NCBI GenBank assembly: GCA_964614655.1
Contig: CAZTPF010000007.1
Location: 17,819 to 81,818, forward strand
Direction of reading: 5' to 3'
Length of the DNA: 64,000 nt
Source of the DNA: an uncultured Bifidobacterium sp.
Lineage (GTDB): Bacteria > Actinomycetota > Acidimicrobiia > Acidimicrobiales > Ilumatobacteraceae
The notes below the pieces were generated by a model. The model made no database searches and was not told the DNA's origin. It saw only the letters and a list, made by a program, of their open reading frames with translations. Made by a program: the position numbers and the translations under genes. Shown here piece after piece: positions 1-6,957 of this stretch. Position 1 is the stretch's first letter, and every line of letters starts with the position of its first letter.

Positions 1-600
1 GTCGTCGATTCCGTTGGCATCGGCGATGGAGCGCCAGCGACCGGCGTCCCCGTAGATGTCGTCGGCGACGGTGTCGAGGTACTGGCCCGACTCGAGTCGG
101 CGGATCTGACCGGGGTTCGGTGTACCCGACGTCGGATTCTGGGGTGGGAGATTGCCCTCGTCCTCGAACTGCTGGAACGACATCGAGACCTCGGCACGCA
201 ACGGTTCGCCGGCCGCCGAGAAATACGTGAAATTGAGATCGAAGCTCGTGATCACCGCTTTGTAGGAGCGCATTTTCCCCCAGTGGAACTGCACCCACGG
301 AGGACGCGTCATGTTGCGATCCTCCTTGGTCCCCTTGATCTTCTTGTCGGTCATCGTGAGTTTGAAGAGTTCGTCGGTGATCTTGGTGACCGGCTTGCCG
401 CTCGCCGACGAGTCGAACATCGCCGTCAAGGAGAACTCGATGGATCCACCGCTGTTGAACTGGAGTTGAGGCGCGTTGGAACCGGGCGTGTCGTTGGCAC
501 TCCAGGAATTGCGCTTGGAGAACTTGAGTTCGTTCGGGTTGAACATGAACTCGATCTTCTTCTTGGTCTCGGTCATGAGATAGGCCTTCTGGATCGCCAT
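1..600 (-). CDS. CIS tube-initiator / baseplate hub protein with LysM-like C-terminal region (Afp7/Pvc7-like), 3' end truncated by window edge
   Basis: Not in ORF track because there is no stop in the window. Manual reverse-complement translation from ATG at 598-600 gives MAIQKAYLMTETKKKIEFMFNPNELKFSKRNSW...TRPPWVQFHWGKMRSYKAVITSFDLNFTYFSAAGEPLRAEVSMSF, then the LysM-like YLDTVADDIYGDAGRWRSIADANGIDD. A GGGAGGAAGG SD-like motif lies about 10 nt upstream. The start is 3 nt after the stop of the upstream ORF. Confidence 0.8.
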   Translation of the reverse strand, partial: MAIQKAYLMTETKKKIEFMFNPNELKFSKRNSWSANDTPGSNAPQLQFNSGGSIEFSLTAMFDSSASGKPVTKITDELFKLTMTDKKIKGTKEDRNMTRPPWVQFHWGKMRSYKAVITSFDLNFTYFSAAGEPLRAEVSMSFQQFEDEGNLPPQNPTSGTPNPGQIRRLESGQYLDTVADDIYGDAGRWRSIADANGIDD

Positions 601-603
601 CGG

Positions 604-3600
604 CTACCACCTTCCTCCCGCGATACCGCGACGTTCGAGTTCGTTGCGCAGCCGCTCGTCGACGATTCGATTGATCCAGTCCATGAGGTCGAGCAGTTGG
701 CTCGTGGTGACTCCGGAAGCAGGACTCTCGCCCGACACCTGGCCGACGATCTGAACCGGACCGGGGGCGACGGGGAGACCAGTCGTCGAGCGTCGGATGG
801 TCGACGAAGACGTGGGCGAAGAGTTCGACGCGCCGTTCCGCCCCAACGTGGCCGCCAGAACCGGTGACACGGTCCGACGGATGGACGGGGTGGGTTCGAA
901 CCCGTTCTCCAGCATGCGCGCCATGTCGTCGGCGCTCATCGAACCATCCGATGCATCGGATGCCGAACCCATCGGCGAGCCAGACGAACGCGACGACCGT
1001 CGCACGACCACGGGAGAGCGCCGTCGTCGAAGGTCGGAGAGGTTCGATGCCCGGTCGACCGCAGTCGACTCGTCTGACTTCGAGACGCTTCGCGCACCTC
1101 CGGCTGGTGAGATAACGACGGGTGCGACGGGCAACACCGCATCGCGTGTTGCGGTGCGCCGAGCAGTGCGAGTCGGGCTGCTGAGCGATCGACGCAGTCG
1201 GCCGCGCGACGCGACCGCCGAGGCCTGGCCCGGATCGAATCGACGAGAGGGGAGAGCGAACCCCGACGCGGTGGAATCAGTTCGTGCAATCGTCGAGGTC
1301 GACCCGATAGGCGAACGTCGGCCGGTCGATCGGGAGACAGGCGAGTCGGCGGTTCCCGTCGGGCCCGATGTCGAGGCCCACGACGAGTCGCTTCCGGCGG
1401 ACGGACGTGAGACGAATGCCGCGGCGATCGAACTTCCCGCCGCCGAGTCGTTCATCGAGCGCGAGACCCGTGCGGCGATCTCCGACGGTGACGGAGGGGC
1501 CGGAATTTCCGATCCACTCTGGGATTCGGGTCGCCGTACTCCCGTCGTCCAGTTCGAATCGGCGACCGAGCGGCGGATCGTCGGACGCGAGGCGATGTCG
1601 GTTGTCGGATCGGTGGACGCGTCAGCGTCTCGCTCGGCGAGGCGTCGACTGAACTCGGCCGCCGCCTCGGGTCCGGCTCCGGTGGCGCGCGGACCGGATC
1701 GACGAGTCGTGGACGTCAGAACGGACGACGAGGCGCTCGAAGCCGACGTGCCCGATGGGGAGGCTGATCCTGTCGAGGTGTTCCGGCGAACGTCGGCGCG
1801 TTGGGAGAACATCCGCGAACTCGTCCAAGAGTCGGCTGCCGAACCTCCGCTCTGTCGGTTGCCGATCGAACGGGCCAACAGGCCGACGAAGGGAGACGGG
1901 CCGCTACCACCCGGCAGAGCCGTGACGGCCGACGGTATTCGAGACTCCGTGGTCCGAGAGCCGGTCGATCGGCGAACGGTGTCGAGAGCGAACTGTCGTC
2001 GGACGGCAACCGAAGACGGGCCGGTGGTGGGTGAGCGTCGTTCCGATGTGGTGCGTGACGATCGAACGTCTCTCGAGCCGTCGGAGACGACCCGTGGCGC
2101 GTCTGTCGTCGAGTCGAGGGTGGAACGAATGGCCTCGACCCGCGAAGAAGTCGTTGCCGTCGAGCTTCGCGGGCGACGATCGGCGGTCGGCGACGACGTC
2201 GGGCGCCGGCCGGTGTCGACTCGCTGTTCGGCGGGCGTGGAGGTCGGGGACGCGGCCAAAGCCGAGAGAACGACGCTGCTGGACGGGGATCGCCGAACCA
2301 GATCGCCGGCCCGGGGCATGGTGCGACGCCGAAGCTCGGAAGGCCGGTCGCTCGACGTCGGTTGCTCGGCCAAACGGGCGACACGTTCGGCGAGACTCGA
2401 TGGCGGCTCGTGGCTCGTCGGTTGGTCGCTGGGGATCTCGTCGGGTTCGGGGAGGCCGACACTTCGTCGCCAACTCGGAGCCGTCCAGGACCTCCCCAGG
2501 TTGGCGGTGTCGGTCGAGGAATCTGGGAGCCGATTGTTCGGCCGTGTCGTCGTTCCGAGGGTGGAAGCCGTCGGCGAGGATGATGTGGTCGGCGTGCCCG
2601 ATGTCGTCCGTGAAGTTGGTCGTGTCGGAGAGGGCGCCGACATCGGTGCCGTGGTCGGGGACGCCGGTGAACTCGAAGTCGACGGTGTCGTCGTCGACGG
2701 TTGTGGCCTTGGGGAGTCCGACGACGGCGTCGAGTCGATCATCGAGCGTCGACGAGACGCCGGGTCGATCAGTGTCGGGGCATCGTCGTTCGACGATGGT
2801 GTCGGAACGAAGGTCGTCCAGTCGGGTGACCGGGAAGTCGACGTCTTCGGTTGCGAGACACTCGACGCTGTCGATGGAGATGGGGATGTCGATGTCGATG
2901 TCGCTGGGGACGGGGATGTCGACATCGACGACGGTGTCGCCTGACGCGTCGTCGGTTCGGGTCGACTCGACGCCCGACGCTGAACGTCGGACGACGAGGA
3001 GGGCCCCGAAGTCGAAGGGGTTCGGTTCGGTGGCGTGCGGGTCGACCTGTTGTCGTCGGACGAGGCGCGTGACGACGACCGAGTGTTGACCGAAGTGCGC
3101 GACGTCGATCCGTTCGTCGAGGTGGTTCCTCGTGCCGAAGATGTACTCGCCGGTCGTGGCGTTGGTTCGGCTGGAGGGCCGTCGCGGTCGGACGACGAGC
3201 CCGATGGAAGGGCCAAAGGACGTGCCCGCGGCGGTCGTGGTGTGGCCGGTCGGACCGGCGCGAGACGAGTGGGAGCGATGTGAGCGTCGTTCTGGTTGGG
3301 TGGACGGCGGGAGGGCTGCAGTCGGCGGGCGATCGACGACGGTGCAGTCGAGTCACCGAGCAGACTCCGGCCGCGAGCGTGCGAGGCCATGGGTAGGCCT
3401 CGCGGTGGGGCCTGGCGGACGACTCGATTTCGTGAACGGGCCCGTCGAATGGCGATGAGGTCGCGGTCTCGCCACGGGTCGAGATCGTCCTGTCGGCCGG
3501 CGACCGCCGGCAGGAGCCACTGCGGGAACTTGACGTCGGCGTGTGACGCCGTGCTCGTCAGATTGCGTCGCACGGTGGCGGGGCGAGCGAGTCCGTTGGC

Positions 3601-3720
3601 CAACATCTGAGAGTTCGACACGACTCGACCGATACGGGGGCGCGTGGCGAGAGCACGTGAGGTGATGATCGGTTGCGAACGCGTGATGCGCCGGAGAGGA
3701 AGAGCACTCACATCAGCCAT
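604..3720 (-). CDS. Large Ser/Thr/Pro/Arg-rich low-complexity protein in the tape-measure (Afp14-like) position of the CIS operon
   Basis: Uninterrupted 1038-codon ORF. It starts 6 nt after the tube-paralog stop and ends 3 nt before the Afp7-like start. The N-terminus (..HADVKFPQWLLPAVAGRQDDLDPWRDRDLIAI..) and C-terminus (..SQLLDLMDWINRIVDERLRNELERRGIAGGRW) look like ordinary protein. The central ~800 codons are TSTSPSPS-type low complexity, and the reading frame there is ambiguous (see findings). Confidence 0.55.
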   Translation of the reverse strand: MADVSALPLRRITRSQPIITSRALATRPRIGRVVSNSQMLANGLARPATVRRNLTSTASHADVKFPQWLLPAVAGRQDDLDPWRDRDLIAIRRARSRNRVVRQAPPRGLPMASHARGRSLLGDSTAPSSIARRLQPSRRPPNQNDAHIAPTRLAPVRPATPRPPRARPLALPSGSSSDRDGPPAEPTPRPASTSSARGTTSTNGSTSRTSVNTRSSSRASSDDNRSTRTPPNRTPSTSGPSSSSDVQRRASSRPEPTTRQATPSSMSTSPSPATSTSTSPSPSTASSVSQPKTSTSRSPDWTTFVPTPSSNDDAPTLIDPASRRRSMIDSTPSSDSPRPQPSTTTPSTSSSPASPTTAPMSAPSPTRPTSRTTSGTPTTSSSPTASTLGTTTRPNNRLPDSSTDTANLGRSWTAPSWRRSVGLPEPDEIPSDQPTSHEPPSSLAERVARLAEQPTSSDRPSELRRRTMPRAGDLVRRSPSSSVVLSALAASPTSTPAEQRVDTGRRPTSSPTADRRPRSSTATTSSRVEAIRSTLDSTTDAPRVVSDGSRDVRSSRTTSERRSPTTGPSSVAVRRQFALDTVRRSTGSRTTESRIPSAVTALPGGSGPSPFVGLLARSIGNRQSGGSAADSWTSSRMFSQRADVRRNTSTGSASPSGTSASSASSSVLTSTTRRSGPRATGAGPEAAAEFSRRLAERDADASTDPTTDIASRPTIRRSVADSNWTTGVRRPESQSGSEIPAPPSPSEIAARVSRSMNDSAAGSSIAAAFVSRPSAGSDSSWASTSGPTGTADSPVSRSTGRRSPIGSTSTIARTDSTASGFALPSRRFDPGQASAVASRGRLRRSLSSPTRTARRTATRDAVLPVAPVVISPAGGARSVSKSDESTAVDRASNLSDLRRRRSPVVVRRSSRSSGSPMGSASDASDGSMSADDMARMLENGFEPTPSIRRTVSPVLAATLGRNGASNSSPTSSSTIRRSTTGLPVAPGPVQIVGQVSGESPASGVTTSQLLDLMDWINRIVDERLRNELERRGIAGGRW

Positions 3721-3726
3721 GGGCGA

Positions 3727-4266
3727 TCACCGCTTGGCCTTCTTCGGGGCCGGCTTCTTCTTGGGTGACGACTTCTTGGCCTTCTTGGCCGGTTTGGCCT
3801 TGTGATCGGTCACGGTGAATCCGTGGTGCGCGATCTCCAGTTCTTCGATCGGGAAATCGTCGTTGGAGATCGAGAAATCCGGACCACTCCACGACACCGG
3901 AAAGGCTTCCTGAAGTGTCCAGGTTCGCAACCTTTGGCCATCGGCGCTGACGAGTGTGATGGCAACGGTCGTGCGCTTCAGTTTGTTGCCGTTCTTCTCG
4001 AAGGCGCCGGCCGACGAACCGTCGATCCAGACGAGAAACCCGTTGTCTTCCGTGATTCCGCGTTTCAGGCGGACGTTGTCGAACGTGAAGCGCCCGGGCA
4101 GTTTGTGGGTGTGGAAGTTCTGTCCGCCCTCCACGACTTCTTCGACTTCGACGGTGACCGACAGCCCTGATGCCTCGCTGAACTGTCCGAGGGGACGTCC
4201 GTCGACCTCGACCATGAAGGTGGCCGAGGTGGGGCTGAAGTCTCGGTAGGCGTCGAACTTGGCCAT
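3727..4266 (-). CDS. Phage/CIS tail tube protein paralog (T4 gp19 / Afp5-like) with Lys/Ala/Pro-rich C-terminal tail
   Basis: 179 aa. FMVEVDGRPLGQFSEASGLSVTVEVEEVVEGGQNFHTHKLPGRFTFDNVRLKRGI...WTLQEAFPVSWSGPDFSISNDDFPIEELEIAHHGF parallels the tube gene at 4944-5378. The C-terminus is HKAKPAKKAKKSSPKKKPAPKKAKR. Confidence 0.87.
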   Translation of the reverse strand: MAKFDAYRDFSPTSATFMVEVDGRPLGQFSEASGLSVTVEVEEVVEGGQNFHTHKLPGRFTFDNVRLKRGITEDNGFLVWIDGSSAGAFEKNGNKLKRTTVAITLVSADGQRLRTWTLQEAFPVSWSGPDFSISNDDFPIEELEIAHHGFTVTDHKAKPAKKAKKSSPKKKPAPKKAKR

Positions 4267-4273
4267 GGCGAAC

Positions 4274-4453
4274 TCAGGCAGTCAGCAATTTCTTGGCCTC
4301 GTCGAGGGCCCGCCGGTTGAGCGCAGCCACCCGCTCCACGAGGTTCACGCGGTCGGCGTGCTGAAGGTCGAGTAGCCGATCGAGATCCCAATGGATGTGA
4401 TAGGCGAGATAGGCGATCTCGTCCCACAGTGCGTCCTCGGGATACAGCTCCAT
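4274..4453 (-). CDS. Small conserved CIS-associated protein (DUF6760-like), 59 aa, absent from ORF track
   Basis: Manual translation: MELYPEDALWDEIAYLAYHIHWDLDRLLDLQHADRVNLVERVAALNRRALDEAKKLLTA. The ATG (4451-4453) overlaps the upstream TGA (4453-4455) as ATGA. The stop is 7 nt before the next tube gene. The YP-x-D-x-LW-x-E-x-A-x-x-AYH-x-HW pattern matches small proteins I recall from actinobacterial CIS loci. Confidence 0.65.
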   Translation of the reverse strand: MELYPEDALWDEIAYLAYHIHWDLDRLLDLQHADRVNLVERVAALNRRALDEAKKLLTA

Positions 4454-4944
4454 CAGTTGTCTCGGTGGACCTCTTCGATCACCGATCCTCCGCGCCGACG
4501 GCCAGTGGCGATTTGAACGTCGTCGTCATCGTCGTCCTCGTCGAACGCTTCCTCGAGCTCGACGATGTCGTCCACCTCGTCGAGCTCGGCGGCCGAGCTT
4601 CCGGCGATCGCCTGGTTCGCCTCGTCGAGGAAAGCCTGGACATCGGCGGGGCTCCCGAAGTTGATCACTCCGTAGAGGTCCTGTAGGAACGCCAGGTCGG
4701 CGGCGAACAGATTCTCGATCTCGCGGGGAGTGACCGCCGACAGAGTTCCGAGTTCGGTCACCACTCGAGCCAGGACGATGATCGTCAAGTACGGATCGTC
4801 CGCACTCTGCACGCGCGGATCCCGCAACGGCTCGATCTCGTCGCGAGCCGTTGCGAGTCGCATGACGCCACGGCGATGCACGGTCCCGTCGGGACCGAGG
4901 TAGCCGCGCGGCAGAGTGAAGGCGAACTCCGTCTTGAGTGCCAT
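4453..4944 (-). CDS. Phage tail assembly protein-like (CIS chaperone position), 163 aa
   Basis: Internal ATG at 4942-4944 of tracked ORF 4453..5295, overlapping the tube stop as ATGA. Sequence is MALKTEFAFTLPRGYLGPDGTVHRRGVMRLATARDEIEPLRDPRVQSADDPYLTIIVLARVV..., followed by an acidic tail DEVDDIVELEEAFDEDDDDDD. It resembles proteins annotated as phage tail assembly protein in actinobacterial CIS clusters. Confidence 0.75.
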   Translation of the reverse strand: MALKTEFAFTLPRGYLGPDGTVHRRGVMRLATARDEIEPLRDPRVQSADDPYLTIIVLARVVTELGTLSAVTPREIENLFAADLAFLQDLYGVINFGSPADVQAFLDEANQAIAGSSAAELDEVDDIVELEEAFDEDDDDDDVQIATGRRRGGSVIEEVHRDN

Positions 4945-5378
4945 CAGGCCTTGAAGAGTCCTTCGTGGGTGATGGTCAGTTCTTCGATCATGACGTCGTC
5001 GGTACCGGCATCGAGGTCGGAGGCACTCCACTTGGAAGGCCAGCCGCTCTCGAAGTTCCAGCGACCGACCTCGGTTCCGGCCGCGTCGTAGATGACGATC
5101 GAGCCGTTGGTGCGCTCGACGGTTCCTTCGAGCACGTTCTTGTGCCAGTCGATGATCGCCGTGTCGGCCGAGAGGCCACGCTTCAGGACGATGTCGTCGT
5201 ACTTGGTGCGACCTGGACGCTTGCGGATGATGATCTTTCCACCCACGGTGTCCTGGTACTCGACCACTTCGGTCGAGTAGCTGAGTCCGGAACATCCGGT
5301 GAAGCGTGCGAGTTCGACGCCCTCCAGCTCCAGAGCGAATTGAGATCCGAGAAATTCGAGATCGTGATCATTGGCCAT
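4944..5378 (-). CDS. Phage/CIS tail tube protein (T4 gp19 / Afp1-like)
   Basis: 144 aa. FALELEGVELARFTGCSGLSYSTEVVEYQDTVGGKIIIRKRPGRTKYDDIVLKRGL...WNFESGWPSKWSASDLDAGTDDVMIEELTITHEGL. Lies directly downstream of the sheath gene (22-nt spacer). Confidence 0.9.
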   Translation of the reverse strand: MANDHDLEFLGSQFALELEGVELARFTGCSGLSYSTEVVEYQDTVGGKIIIRKRPGRTKYDDIVLKRGLSADTAIIDWHKNVLEGTVERTNGSIVIYDAAGTEVGRWNFESGWPSKWSASDLDAGTDDVMIEELTITHEGLFKA

Positions 5379-5400: not shown

Positions 5401-6957
5401 TCAGGAGGCCTGACGGAGCTGGCTGATACGGAAGATGACGAATTCGGCGGGCTTCACCGGAGCGATGCCGACTTCGACGATGACTTTGCCCTGATCGATG
5501 GAATCAGGCGGGTTGGTCTCGGCATCGCACTTCACGAAGAAGGCTTGCTCGGCTGTGGCGCCGAACAGGGCACCGTCTCGCCACAGTCCACGGAGGAAGG
5601 CCGAGATGGTTCGCTTGAGTCCTTCCCAGAGCTTCTGGTCGTTCGGCTCGAACACTGCGAACTGCGTGCCCTCCATGATCGCGGTTTCGATCATGTTGAA
5701 CAGGCGGCGAACGTTGATGTACGTCCAGTCGGTGTTCGACGACAGCGTGCGAGCGCCCCAGACACGGATGCCGCGGGTGCCGAAGGGGCGGATGCAGTTG
5801 ATGCCGATCGGGTTGAGCAGAGCCTGCTCACCCTTCGTGATGTCGAGCTCGGTCGACAGCACGCCGCGCACGACTTCGTTGGCCGGTGCCTTCCACACAC
5901 CGCGTGTGTCGTCGACTCGGCTCCAGATGCCGGCCACATGGCCCGACGGCGGTACGAGAATCGTCTCGTCGGCCGGGCTGGTGCTCGCCGGATTGTCGAC
6001 GCGGATCCACGGGTAGTAGAAGGCGGCGAAAGCCGAGTCGTACATGGCGACGTCGGAGCGCCACTCCTTCACCTGCTGGGGTGACATTCCCGGGGGAGCG
6101 TCGAGGACGGCCATGCGGTTGGCCTGACCTTCGCAGTGGGTGATGAGGGCGGTCTGAACGGCCTTCCACATGCCGAGATCGACCGATCCGTCGTCCTTGG
6201 TGGCGGCGGTGATCAGGTCGGGGACCATCACCATCGTGACCTCGTCGGCGATGACGAGACCGTTGATTCCGGTGCGATCGCTCTCGCTGCCGGCGAAGTG
6301 CTTGGTCTTGACTTCCACCGGGACGGCGGGGGCCGGAGTGATCGCAAAGACGCCGGTCTTGAGTCCGGCGAGCGACAAATCGGTGAGGCTCTTCAGGTCG
6401 ACCTTCGTCTCGACCTTCACCTTCTTCGACTGGCCGTTCACGGCCTTCACGACATCGGCGAGCGACACGTCGTCGAAGCGCTCGACCTCTTCGCCACCCT
6501 CGTTCACGACGAGGTTGAACTTCGGTGCTTCTTTCTCCTCGACGGGGGAACCCGGCTCGATGGTGACCGACAGCCCGTCGGCAGCTCCGATCGACTGGAT
6601 CTCGAGCGGTTGTCCGAGCGCACGGTCGACGGCAGGCAGAGCCAGCTGACCAGGCTGATCGGACGGAGCCTGGTGGGCGACTCGCACGATGTAGGCGAGG
6701 CCACCACCGTTGTTGAAGAAGCCGTAAACCGAGTGAGGGAGCATTGCACCGGGCACGAAACCGCCGTAGAGCGACTCGTACTGGGTCCAGCTCGTGACCA
6801 GACGCGGCTTCAAGCCCTGGGGATCACTCGGATCGTCCTTCGGATAATCGGCGGTGAAACCGACGAAGGCCGCAACGGCGGTGAGACCTGCCGACAGTGT
6901 GGCTTGGCCCGAAGGCACTTCTTCGACGTAGACACCTGGAGTCAAGTACGAGGGCAT
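5401..6957 (-). CDS. Contractile tail sheath protein
   Basis: 518 aa. The N-terminus MPSYLTPGVYVEEVPSG and C-terminal ..GINCIRPFGTRGIRVWGARTLS..DWTYINVRRLFNMIE..FEPND..LW are typical of the phage tail sheath family. A GGGAAAGGAAA SD lies upstream. Confidence 0.93.
   Translation of the reverse strand: MPSYLTPGVYVEEVPSGQATLSAGLTAVAAFVGFTADYPKDDPSDPQGLKPRLVTSWTQYESLYGGFVPGAMLPHSVYGFFNNGGGLAYIVRVAHQAPSDQPGQLALPAVDRALGQPLEIQSIGAADGLSVTIEPGSPVEEKEAPKFNLVVNEGGEEVERFDDVSLADVVKAVNGQSKKVKVETKVDLKSLTDLSLAGLKTGVFAITPAPAVPVEVKTKHFAGSESDRTGINGLVIADEVTMVMVPDLITAATKDDGSVDLGMWKAVQTALITHCEGQANRMAVLDAPPGMSPQQVKEWRSDVAMYDSAFAAFYYPWIRVDNPASTSPADETILVPPSGHVAGIWSRVDDTRGVWKAPANEVVRGVLSTELDITKGEQALLNPIGINCIRPFGTRGIRVWGARTLSSNTDWTYINVRRLFNMIETAIMEGTQFAVFEPNDQKLWEGLKRTISAFLRGLWRDGALFGATAEQAFFVKCDAETNPPDSIDQGKVIVEVGIAPVKPAEFVIFRISQLRQAS

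Follow-up and report, generated by a model that had tools for sequence, protein, structure and literature searches.

A predicted disordered, polycationic protein in the tape-measure slot of an actinobacterial contractile injection system

The window analyzed here, a stretch of 64,000 nucleotides (nt) from contig CAZTPF010000007.1 of assembly GCA_964614655.1, carries on its minus strand the genes of a contractile injection system (CIS). They are arranged in the order sheath, tube, tail-assembly chaperone (TAC; PHROG 508), DUF6760 protein, second tube (tube2), the open reading frame (ORF) 604..3720, and CIS_tube/LysM tube initiator, followed in relatives by VgrG, gp25, and baseplate J. Together with these relatives, the cluster comprises the sheath, the gp19-like tube, the CIS_tube/LysM initiator, VgrG, gp25, baseplate J, and the Pvc16_N terminator that characterize a CIS. 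In phage P2, the order is sheath FI, tube FII, chaperones E/E′, tape measure T, U, and D. The order in the cluster matches it, with ORF 604..3720 in the slot of the tape measure. The ORF has an ATG start and a TAG stop, encodes 1038 amino acids (aa; ~108 kDa), and is the largest ORF of the CIS cluster. Its location between the TAC and second tube genes and the tube initiator gene agrees with an earlier note on this DNA, which had placed it at the tape-measure position of a CIS operon. The product is a basic chain predicted to be disordered, and may be the tape-measure equivalent of the system, as described later.

The amino acid composition of the product is extreme. Ser (19.7%), Arg (13.5%), Thr (11.2%), Pro (10.8%), and Ala (10.4%) account for 65.5% of the residues together, Phe (1.0%), Trp (1.0%), His (0.4%), and Lys (0.3%) are scarce, and Tyr and Cys are absent (0%). 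The net charge is +62. The adjacent CIS proteins have ordinary compositions. Judging from charge and hydropathy, the product falls on the disordered side, and the sheath, the tubes, and the chaperone fall on the folded side. In the AlphaFold2 (AF2) model predicted from the 29-sequence family alignment, the mean predicted local distance difference test (pLDDT) score is 41, the score is below 50 in 883 of the 1038 residues, and the helix content is ~8%. The short helices in the model (residues 82-97, 443-451, 612-619, 684-698, 749-752, 930-938, 988-996, and 1006-1030) coincide with conserved islands. Neither a signal peptide nor a segment hydrophobic enough for a membrane helix was found in the product (maximum 19-residue Kyte-Doolittle value, 1.31). 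The earlier note had described a dominance of Ser, Thr, Pro, Arg, and Ala with almost no aromatic, Cys, or Lys residues, and had expected disorder instead of a helical ruler. Both descriptions are borne out by these values. However, the ~110 ordinary residues that it had assigned to the N-terminus give way to a conserved block of ~180 residues, which is predicted to be non-globular with a single helix.

Throughout the family, the proteins remain disordered and basic, with net charges of +58 to +92. In the lower-GC relatives (L007, P0020, and P0156), Gln, Asn, and Lys partly take the place of Arg, Thr, and Pro, and the very high-GC relative P0158 is rich in Ala, Arg, Gly, Pro, and Val. Since disorder and charge persist both in low-GC (P0156 and L007) and in very high-GC (P0158) relatives, they are not artifacts of GC content. 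The shift of composition with GC further suggests that the selected property is a basic low-complexity chain and not the Ser/Thr content itself.

Three regions of the product are distinguished by conservation (Table 1). The ratios of nonsynonymous to synonymous substitution rates (dN/dS) in the table, calculated against locus L002, point to strong purifying selection on both termini and a relaxed middle. In the N-terminal region, the blocks MASHARGR, APSSIARRL, and NDAH are invariant, and the helix at residues 82-97 is the only one predicted. The islands in the middle region are WTTF (at 301), WRRSxGL (417), AERVARLA (444), LVRRSP (474), PGGSxxSPFxG (603), TGAGPEAAAEF (680), RLRRS (841), and LPVAPVV (863). 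The C-terminal helix (residues 1006-1030) is the sole structural element predicted with high confidence by AF2, and is a candidate for an anchor that docks in the hub.

Table 1 Features of the gene in the tape-measure slot and of its neighbors. Positions are those of the window.
Feature	Position	Strand	Basis
Whole gene: 1038-aa predicted disordered polycationic protein, tape-measure slot	604..3720	-	ORF, composition, 29-sequence alignment, AF2
Conserved N-terminal region, aa 1-182	3175..3720	-	conservation, dN/dS 0.03, motif positions
Predicted disordered Ser/Thr/Arg/Pro/Ala-rich middle, aa 183-926	943..3174	-	dN/dS 0.35; segment lengths vary
Conserved C-terminal region, aa 927-1038: SADDMARMLENGFEP, two IRR[ST] motifs, terminal amphipathic helix	607..942	-	conservation, dN/dS 0.075
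Predicted C-terminal amphipathic helix, aa 1006-1030 (TSQLLDLMDWINRIVDERLRNELER)	631..705	-	AF2 pLDDT about 90; column identity 0.90
Shine-Dalgarno sequence of the tube-initiator gene, GGGAGGAAGG, within the last codons (..GGRW)	610..619	-	sequence
Sheath protein, first gene of the operon	5401..6957	-	PF04984, PF17482
Inner tube protein, gp19-like, net charge -11	4944..5378	-	PF06841, E 2.2e-35
Acidic tail-assembly-chaperone-like protein, 163 aa, net charge -21, Asp/Glu-rich C-terminal tail	4453..4944	-	PHROG 508, E 5.5e-7
DUF6760 protein, 59 aa	4274..4453	-	PF20546, E 1.8e-7, 31.6 bits vs cut-off 27
Second tube/adaptor protein, gp19-like, CIS5-like, Lys-rich C-terminal tail	3727..4266	-	PF06841, E 6.9e-37; NF053770
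Tube initiator, CIS_tube domain, cut at the window edge	1..600	-	PF19266, E 3.3e-27; weak Phage_P2_GpU match

A short motif of a hydrophobic residue and two arginines, usually followed by Ser, Thr, Asn, or Gln, is found 16 times in the product, compared with 3.0 expected (z = 7.9), and is enriched in every representative tested (z = 4-13). Most of the motifs are held by the middle region (residues 183-926). Four are in the N-terminal region, at residues 10, 51, 92, and 132, with spacings of 41/41/40. About 10 copies are positionally conserved, and the arginines in the motifs are better conserved than the other arginines (0.60 vs 0.38, p = 0.002). Across the representatives, the motif gives a weak bump at lags of 36-47. 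Together with the clean spacing in the N-terminal block, this suggests a general periodicity only weakly, and does not suffice for a claim of one motif per tube ring. The motif does not appear in the earlier note, nor do the DUF6760 gene, the identity of the TAC, and the overlap of the GGRW codons with a ribosome-binding site, all described below.

The family is narrow. Thirty relatives were found in 5.8 billion proteins searched, 29 sequences align with a mean column identity of 42%, and only 27 proteins were retrieved when 1.84 billion representatives were searched exhaustively with HMMER. Eleven syntenic genome loci were obtained, all from metagenome-assembled genomes (MAGs) of Actinomycetota, several of them Ilumatobacteraceae. 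The product has no match in Pfam, NCBIfam, or PHROG (E ≤ 0.1), and none of the 29 members matches a tape-measure family (E ≤ 1). The family profile, the N-terminus, and the C-terminus give no match in the PDB, and no relatives are found in GenBank phages or IMG/VR.

The lengths of the family members should be noted, since they are related to the function proposed later. In the clade of the window, the total length is 986-1092 aa (standard deviation, 27), the lengths of the segments that separate the invariant anchors differ by as much as 146 aa, and the middle regions are only 22-39% identical. Among seven lineage representatives, the standard deviation of the anchored span is 25.5 aa, compared with a median of 70 when the segment lengths are permuted independently (p = 0.004). 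This compensation among segments suggests selection on the total length, as expected of a ruler. The alignment of related loci proposed in the earlier note thus gives conserved termini around an interior of varying length, with the total length held. The members of a second clade are ~30% longer (1176-1380 aa). Two members are much shorter, namely P0166 (444 aa) and P0171 (338 aa, partial), and both retain the motifs of the N-terminus as well as the helix at the C-terminus.

An open frame ending with ...ERRG..GGRW is present in 9 of the 11 genome loci, namely L001, L002, and L004-L009, in which it is complete or nearly so (about 1000-1380 aa), and L010, which gives a cut C-terminal fragment. 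The homologue in L003 (L003:9977-12270) is open for 732 codons only and has a different end, probably owing to a frameshift or an assembly error. The L003 MAG is labeled "uncultured Bifidobacterium sp." yet has an actinobacterial CIS, and the taxon label looks doubtful. A long open frame of a high-GC genome could be an artifact in the wrong frame or on the wrong strand, with the true product encoded otherwise, and two features might be taken in that sense. One is the GC content at the three codon positions (0.59/0.72/0.71), which is atypical in comparison with that in the neighbors (about 0.6/0.43/0.8), and the other is an overlapping antisense ORF of 715 aa at 797..2944 (+), rich in Asp, Glu, Gly, Val, and Arg, the third codon positions of which coincide with those of ORF 604..3720. 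The former, in particular the odd value at the second position, is due to the Ser, Thr, Pro, Ala, and Arg codons. The latter appears to be a shadow ORF that is not kept in relatives, since no antisense ORF of at least 500 aa lies over the gene in the related loci. Furthermore, the differences from L002 in the N-terminus are concentrated at the third codon positions (7/5/89 at positions 1/2/3), the frame with its start and stop and the protein motifs, among them invariant Trp and Phe residues, are kept in 29 proteins and in loci of differing GC, and the gene fits into an operon on the minus strand. Judging from the conservation of the frame, the pattern at the codon positions, and the absence of any alternative ORF kept in the relatives, an artifact has next to no probability and is ruled out. 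The earlier note had considered that orthologous loci might encode a folded protein in another frame; they keep the frame of ORF 604..3720.

The spacer between the stop of the second tube gene and ORF 604..3720 is 6 nt, and that between the stop of the ORF and the ATG of the initiator gene (600..1) is 3 nt, with no overlap on either side. The Shine-Dalgarno sequence of the initiator gene is provided by the last codons of the ORF, GGA GGA AGG TGG (GGRW). Translational coupling on both sides, as claimed in the earlier note, is thus plausible downstream but weaker upstream. The sequence GGAGGAAGGTGG is kept at the DNA level in the window and in six of the eight related loci checked, and L002 (GGGGGAAGGTGG) and L009 (GGAGGTAGGTGG) show synonymous single-base differences in this part. 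The GGRW codons (window 607..619, minus strand) are rare for a genome of 65% GC. Since they form a ribosome-binding site, part of the apparent protein conservation there is a constraint at the DNA level.

The orthologue of the TAC in locus L007 also matches PHROG 508 (E 1.1e-7). The presence of a TAC homologue implies a tape-measure-like client. The charges of the proteins are complementary (+62 for the ORF product, −21 for the TAC, and −11 for the tube), and the acidic chaperone would be the partner of the basic product. The start of the DUF6760 gene overlaps the stop of the chaperone gene, and the DUF6760 protein may correspond to the second chaperone product of phages, which arises by frameshift. 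In the loci of Nocardioides and Kitasatospora described below, DUF6760 is found at this position too, and the chaperone and DUF6760 pair is also located upstream of the big ORF in these two loci and in the S. clavuligerus locus. The C-terminus of the tube2/CIS5-like protein (window 3727..3800, minus strand) is a histone-H1-like Lys/Ala/Pro tail, KAKPAKKAKKSSPKKKPAPKKAKR, with a net charge of +12. Tails of this kind are unusual in tube or adaptor proteins. The full-length orthologues of the initiator carry LysM.

A complete cluster is seen in L007. A divergent PhoH gene is followed by the sheath, tube, chaperone, tube2, a homologue of 1176 aa, the LysM initiator, VgrG, gp25, and baseplate J. 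After them come Tail_P2_I, a zinc-ribbon protein, the Pvc16_N terminator, and finally a protein that has five CarboxypepD_reg domains. The cluster is flanked by housekeeping genes and contains no capsid genes. No other candidate for the tape measure is found in the complete L007 cluster, where the remaining genes are all otherwise assigned. In the part at L007:15710-18996 and its equivalents in L001 and L004-L006, a double zinc-ribbon protein, the Pvc16_N terminator, and the five-CarboxypepD_reg protein (~707 aa) are encoded, the last of which is a possible fiber or surface-binding element. Over 10 kb to either side of the complete related clusters L007 and L006, no AAA+ ATPase was found, an unusual absence for a CIS.

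More distant loci were reached by using the tube initiator as a handle, and the same-slot proteins in them were chosen by neighborhood and not by sequence. In Nocardioides sp. C4-1, a cultured isolate (GCA_039939255.1; gene on contig JBDUUE010000006.1, L012:6003-10001), the slot is occupied by a 1332-aa protein rich in Ala, Pro, Ser, and Thr, which has ~15 VRR motifs, no Pfam domain, and a C-terminal helix of ..VVERIEERVVDELERRGRR... The N-terminal block is common to the family of the window and the Nocardioides-type family (11 sequences), judging from profile comparison with hhalign (probability 82%, E 1e-5). A Dehalococcoidia MAG has a same-slot protein with VQR motifs ending in ..LLAQIERRGGRY, and a Kineosporiaceae MAG has one ending in ..VLAELERRGGRY, which also contains an eCIS_core/DUF4157 domain. 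On a Kitasatospora plasmid, a 1243-aa DUF4157 protein is in the slot. In the S. clavuligerus megaplasmid NZ_CP065235.1 (L016:14792-18937), a 1381-aa ORF with ~25 "PAVQR[AT]P" repeats occupies 4 kb of the CIS cluster. For these 4 kb, PLSDB lists in its gene table only a 71-aa hypothetical protein, corresponding to the last codons, and an antisense ORF, which suggests that gene tables may hide such proteins. In the remote CIS in L013 (a contig of GCA_030841365.1), the sheath gene occurs twice (683 and 775 aa), and the second tube and initiator genes are separated by a 56-aa gene only, so that the tape-measure slot is effectively empty. The sequence ELERRG or IERRG recurs in the last 15 residues of the same-slot proteins in the Nocardioides, Kineosporiaceae, and Dehalococcoidia loci. 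A 36-column hidden Markov model (HMM) of the C-terminus, applied to six-frame ORFs of the distant loci, gives the right C-termini among its top matches, with E values of about 3.

These observations bear on how the length of a CIS is set. Homologues of afp14 are generally absent from lineage II extracellular CISs (eCISs) (Chen et al., PMC6899500). Three papers on Streptomyces CISs report that a tape-measure gene is absent, although the particles have a uniform length of 230 or 268 nm and contain 60 tube layers (PMC10066040, PMC12237407, PMC10286715). The slot of the S. coelicolor CIS is apparently empty, with sco4248 and sco4249 transcribed divergently (10.1101/2022.08.10.503483). Lineage II and Streptomyces-type CISs are thus reported to reach a uniform length without an Afp14-type tape measure (PMC6899500, PMC10066040, PMC12237407, PMC10286715). 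Known CIS tape measures have α-helical centers and scale at 0.216-0.229 nm per residue, and Alg14 has been shown to be a ruler (10.64898/2026.05.27.728243). With this coefficient, 1038 aa correspond to about 224-238 nm, a realistic CIS length. The contour of a disordered chain (0.36-0.38 nm per residue) would reach up to roughly 390 nm for 1038 aa.

The product of ORF 604..3720 takes the position of a tape measure and has neither the sequence homology nor the helical center of one. Compared with tme-like genes, it shares the ORF length and the synteny upstream of the baseplate genes and lacks DUF4157, transmembrane segments, a coiled coil, and an effector. Since it thus agrees with each description in part, we file it as a tape-measure-slot protein of a CIS, from a family not described before, analogues of which occur in cultured Actinomycetes. 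As to its function, we favor, with a probability of about 0.58, a disordered polycationic tape-measure equivalent of a chromosomal P2-ordered CIS in an uncultured Ilumatobacteraceae-like actinobacterium of freshwater/marine type. The slot, the chaperone, the disorder, the charge, the conserved termini, the enrichment of the motif, and the conservation of total length within the family are the observations behind this reading. Docking, the hand-over from chaperone to tube, and the ruler function would then proceed as follows. The conserved C-terminal amphipathic helix would dock in the hub of the tube initiator and spike. The acidic TAC, possibly with the DUF6760 protein, would coat the basic chain and keep it soluble and extended, until acidic tube subunits (net charge −11 each) displace the chaperone and polymerize around the chain, with the hydrophobic-Arg-Arg motifs as repeated contact points. 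Polymerization would end once the first 180 residues, which are conserved, become accessible and bind the Pvc16_N terminator, so that the contour of the disordered chain, not the rise of a helix, would set or limit the particle length. The chain would be expelled on contraction, and could also act on the target.

Several points weigh against a tape-measure equivalent. No similarity to any tape-measure family is detectable in Pfam, NCBIfam, PHROGs, the PDB, GenBank phages, or IMG/VR. The central α-helical or coiled-coil region of known phage and CIS tape measures is absent from the AF2 model. The low confidence of a prediction from only 29 sequences is itself no proof of disorder. The likeness of the C-terminal helix to those in the distant loci is not significant with the family HMM, and the case for a common ancestry of the C-terminal module is thus solely the recurrence of E[LI]ERRG at the protein ends. 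The CIS of S. coelicolor is uniform at 268 nm apparently without a gene in the slot (PMC12237407; 10.1101/2022.08.10.503483), which indicates that the CIS lineage can set the length by other means. In the sister Nocardioides-type family (888-1332 aa), no length compensation is found (p = 0.28). The 444-aa member P0166, if complete, predicts a much shorter particle under a ruler model. Finally, the CIS here is known from its genes alone, and the chain may be a true ruler or an ejected lumen cargo or plug.

The last point leads to the other role that a chain in this slot could have, namely a cargo, plug, or effector loaded in the lumen. The chain would be Tme-like and derived from a tape measure, with the DUF4157, transmembrane, and enzymatic domains lost or never present. 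Its C-terminus would be anchored to the spike or initiator, and it would be fired into the target or the envelope of the producer itself, where the Arg-rich chain would act like a cell-penetrating peptide or bind nucleic acids. Tme of S. davawensis, which shares the slot, is an effector with DUF4157, transmembrane helices, and a nuclease, is ~70% disordered, and co-purifies with the spike and the tube initiator (PMC11126660). The occurrence of eCIS_core/DUF4157 in the Kitasatospora and Kineosporiaceae same-slot proteins, the net charge of +58 to +92 in the family, the poor length conservation in the Nocardioides-type family, and the ability of the S. coelicolor CIS to set its length without a gene in the slot (PMC12237407) are also consistent with a cargo. 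However, none of the 29 members contains DUF4157, a transmembrane segment (maximum 19-residue Kyte-Doolittle value, 1.31), or a catalytic or effector domain. The eCIS_core/DUF4157 model PF13699 likewise finds nothing in the window protein itself, whereas it detects the Kitasatospora and Kineosporiaceae proteins. No AAA+ ATPase for loading is present in the loci examined, yet the TAC is, and the compensation of total length in the clade of the window is hard to explain for a pure cargo. A cargo or plug without a ruler role is the main rival, though a less probable one than the tape-measure equivalent. One role need not preclude the other, as the tape measures of phages are ejected too.

The earlier note had also raised a heavily phosphorylated or glycosylated linker, in which the Ser/Thr-rich chain is a substrate for dense phosphorylation at RRxS- or RRS-like sites or for O-glycosylation, and the modified polymer is the functional form. 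Ser and Thr make up 31% of the residues, and there are 15 RR[ST] sites, which resemble consensus sites of basophilic kinases. However, the conserved cluster encodes neither a kinase nor a glycosyltransferase, and the product has no signal peptide for export to a mannosylation machinery. Moreover, the Ser/Thr richness is not universal, as seen in the Ala/Arg/Gly/Pro/Val-rich P0158 and in the Ala/Pro-rich Nocardioides and Streptomyces analogues, whereas the hydrophobic-RR or -QR motif persists. A modified linker is therefore very improbable.

The disordered tape-measure equivalent may extend beyond the family of the window. Tentatively, this family and the VRR/VQR analogues in Nocardioides, S. 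clavuligerus, and Chloroflexota could be the "missing" tape measure of lineage II, namely a disordered polycationic ruler that is extended by a chaperone and read by the tube through regularly spaced hydrophobic-Arg-Arg docking motifs, with the chain length setting the particle length. This generalization is possible, though we hold it with less confidence than the reading for the window itself. If it is true, the missing tape measure would measure length in a manner closer to the rulers YscP and FliK than to helical phage tape measures. In any case, a conserved, annotation-poor class of disordered proteins is found in the classical tape-measure slot beside a tail-assembly chaperone, and the product of ORF 604..3720 is a good candidate for the component that sets the length or fills the lumen and is reported missing in lineage II-type CISs. 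The candidate is genetically testable in cultured strains (Nocardioides sp. C4-1 and S. clavuligerus). If it is a ruler, a disordered chain with short linear motifs could determine the length of a tail, which is relevant to the engineering of CIS length and cargo capacity. If it is a cargo, the payload would be polycationic and free of enzymes, which is unusual. We found no paper describing a disordered class of proteins with RR/QR motifs.

The protein can be compared with known systems. It shares with the phage and CIS tape measures (P2 gpT, T4 gp29, and Afp14/Pvc14/Alg14, i.e., Cis14) a P2-like slot, the status of largest ORF, an adjacent chaperone gene, conserved termini around a variable middle, and, within the clade of the window, a conserved total length. 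It differs from them in having no sequence match, ~8% helix instead of a mostly α-helical or coiled-coil center, an extreme Ser/Arg/Thr/Pro/Ala composition, a charge of +62, and repeated hydrophobic-Arg-Arg motifs. In Afp-type eCISs, unlike in the window, the tape-measure gene is located elsewhere, after the fiber gene. Tme of S. davawensis and the tme-like genes (PMC11126660) are similar in that they directly precede the baseplate genes in actinobacterial CISs as the largest ORF. Tme is also largely disordered, and some same-slot relatives (Kitasatospora and Kineosporiaceae) contain DUF4157, as do tme-like genes. The family of the window, however, has no DUF4157/eCIS_core, transmembrane helices, coiled coil, or nuclease/effector domain, and Tme is 2247 aa long in comparison with 1038 aa in the window.

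Sle1 and Sle2 of S. lividans SLP are likewise lumen proteins of an actinobacterial CIS proposed to be derived from a tape measure, Sle1 being a coiled-coil protein encoded upstream of the sheath and proposed to be a tape-measure-related cargo (PMC13277306). Unlike the product of ORF 604..3720, Sle1 consists of a 440-aa coiled coil and a helical globular domain and is paired with a DUF4157 protein. Nothing similar is found upstream of the sheath in the system of the window, where a divergent PhoH gene is present. The eCIS cargos with a short disordered N-terminal loading sequence also differ, since the protein in the window is disordered throughout in prediction and has no folded effector domain, and no Cis15-type AAA+ protein is seen within 10 kb on either side of L007 and L006. 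Also comparable are the same-slot VRR/VQR proteins of Nocardioides sp. C4-1, S. clavuligerus, and Dehalococcoidia, low-complexity proteins of 888-1381 aa in which no Pfam domain is found and hydrophobic-[RQ]-R motifs are repeated. They differ in being Ala/Pro-rich instead of Ser/Thr-rich, in the less constrained total length, in the use of VQR instead of VRR in the Streptomyces protein, and in the location of the gene before the second tube gene in Streptomycetaceae.

YscP and FliK of type III secretion systems and flagella are extended or disordered rulers, in which the number of residues is thought to set the tube length. They belong to an unrelated machine, the protein in the window has no T3S4 domain and no detected homology to them, and its ruler function is only proposed. 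What it shares with them in general is the design of conserved functional ends separated by a tolerant spacer.

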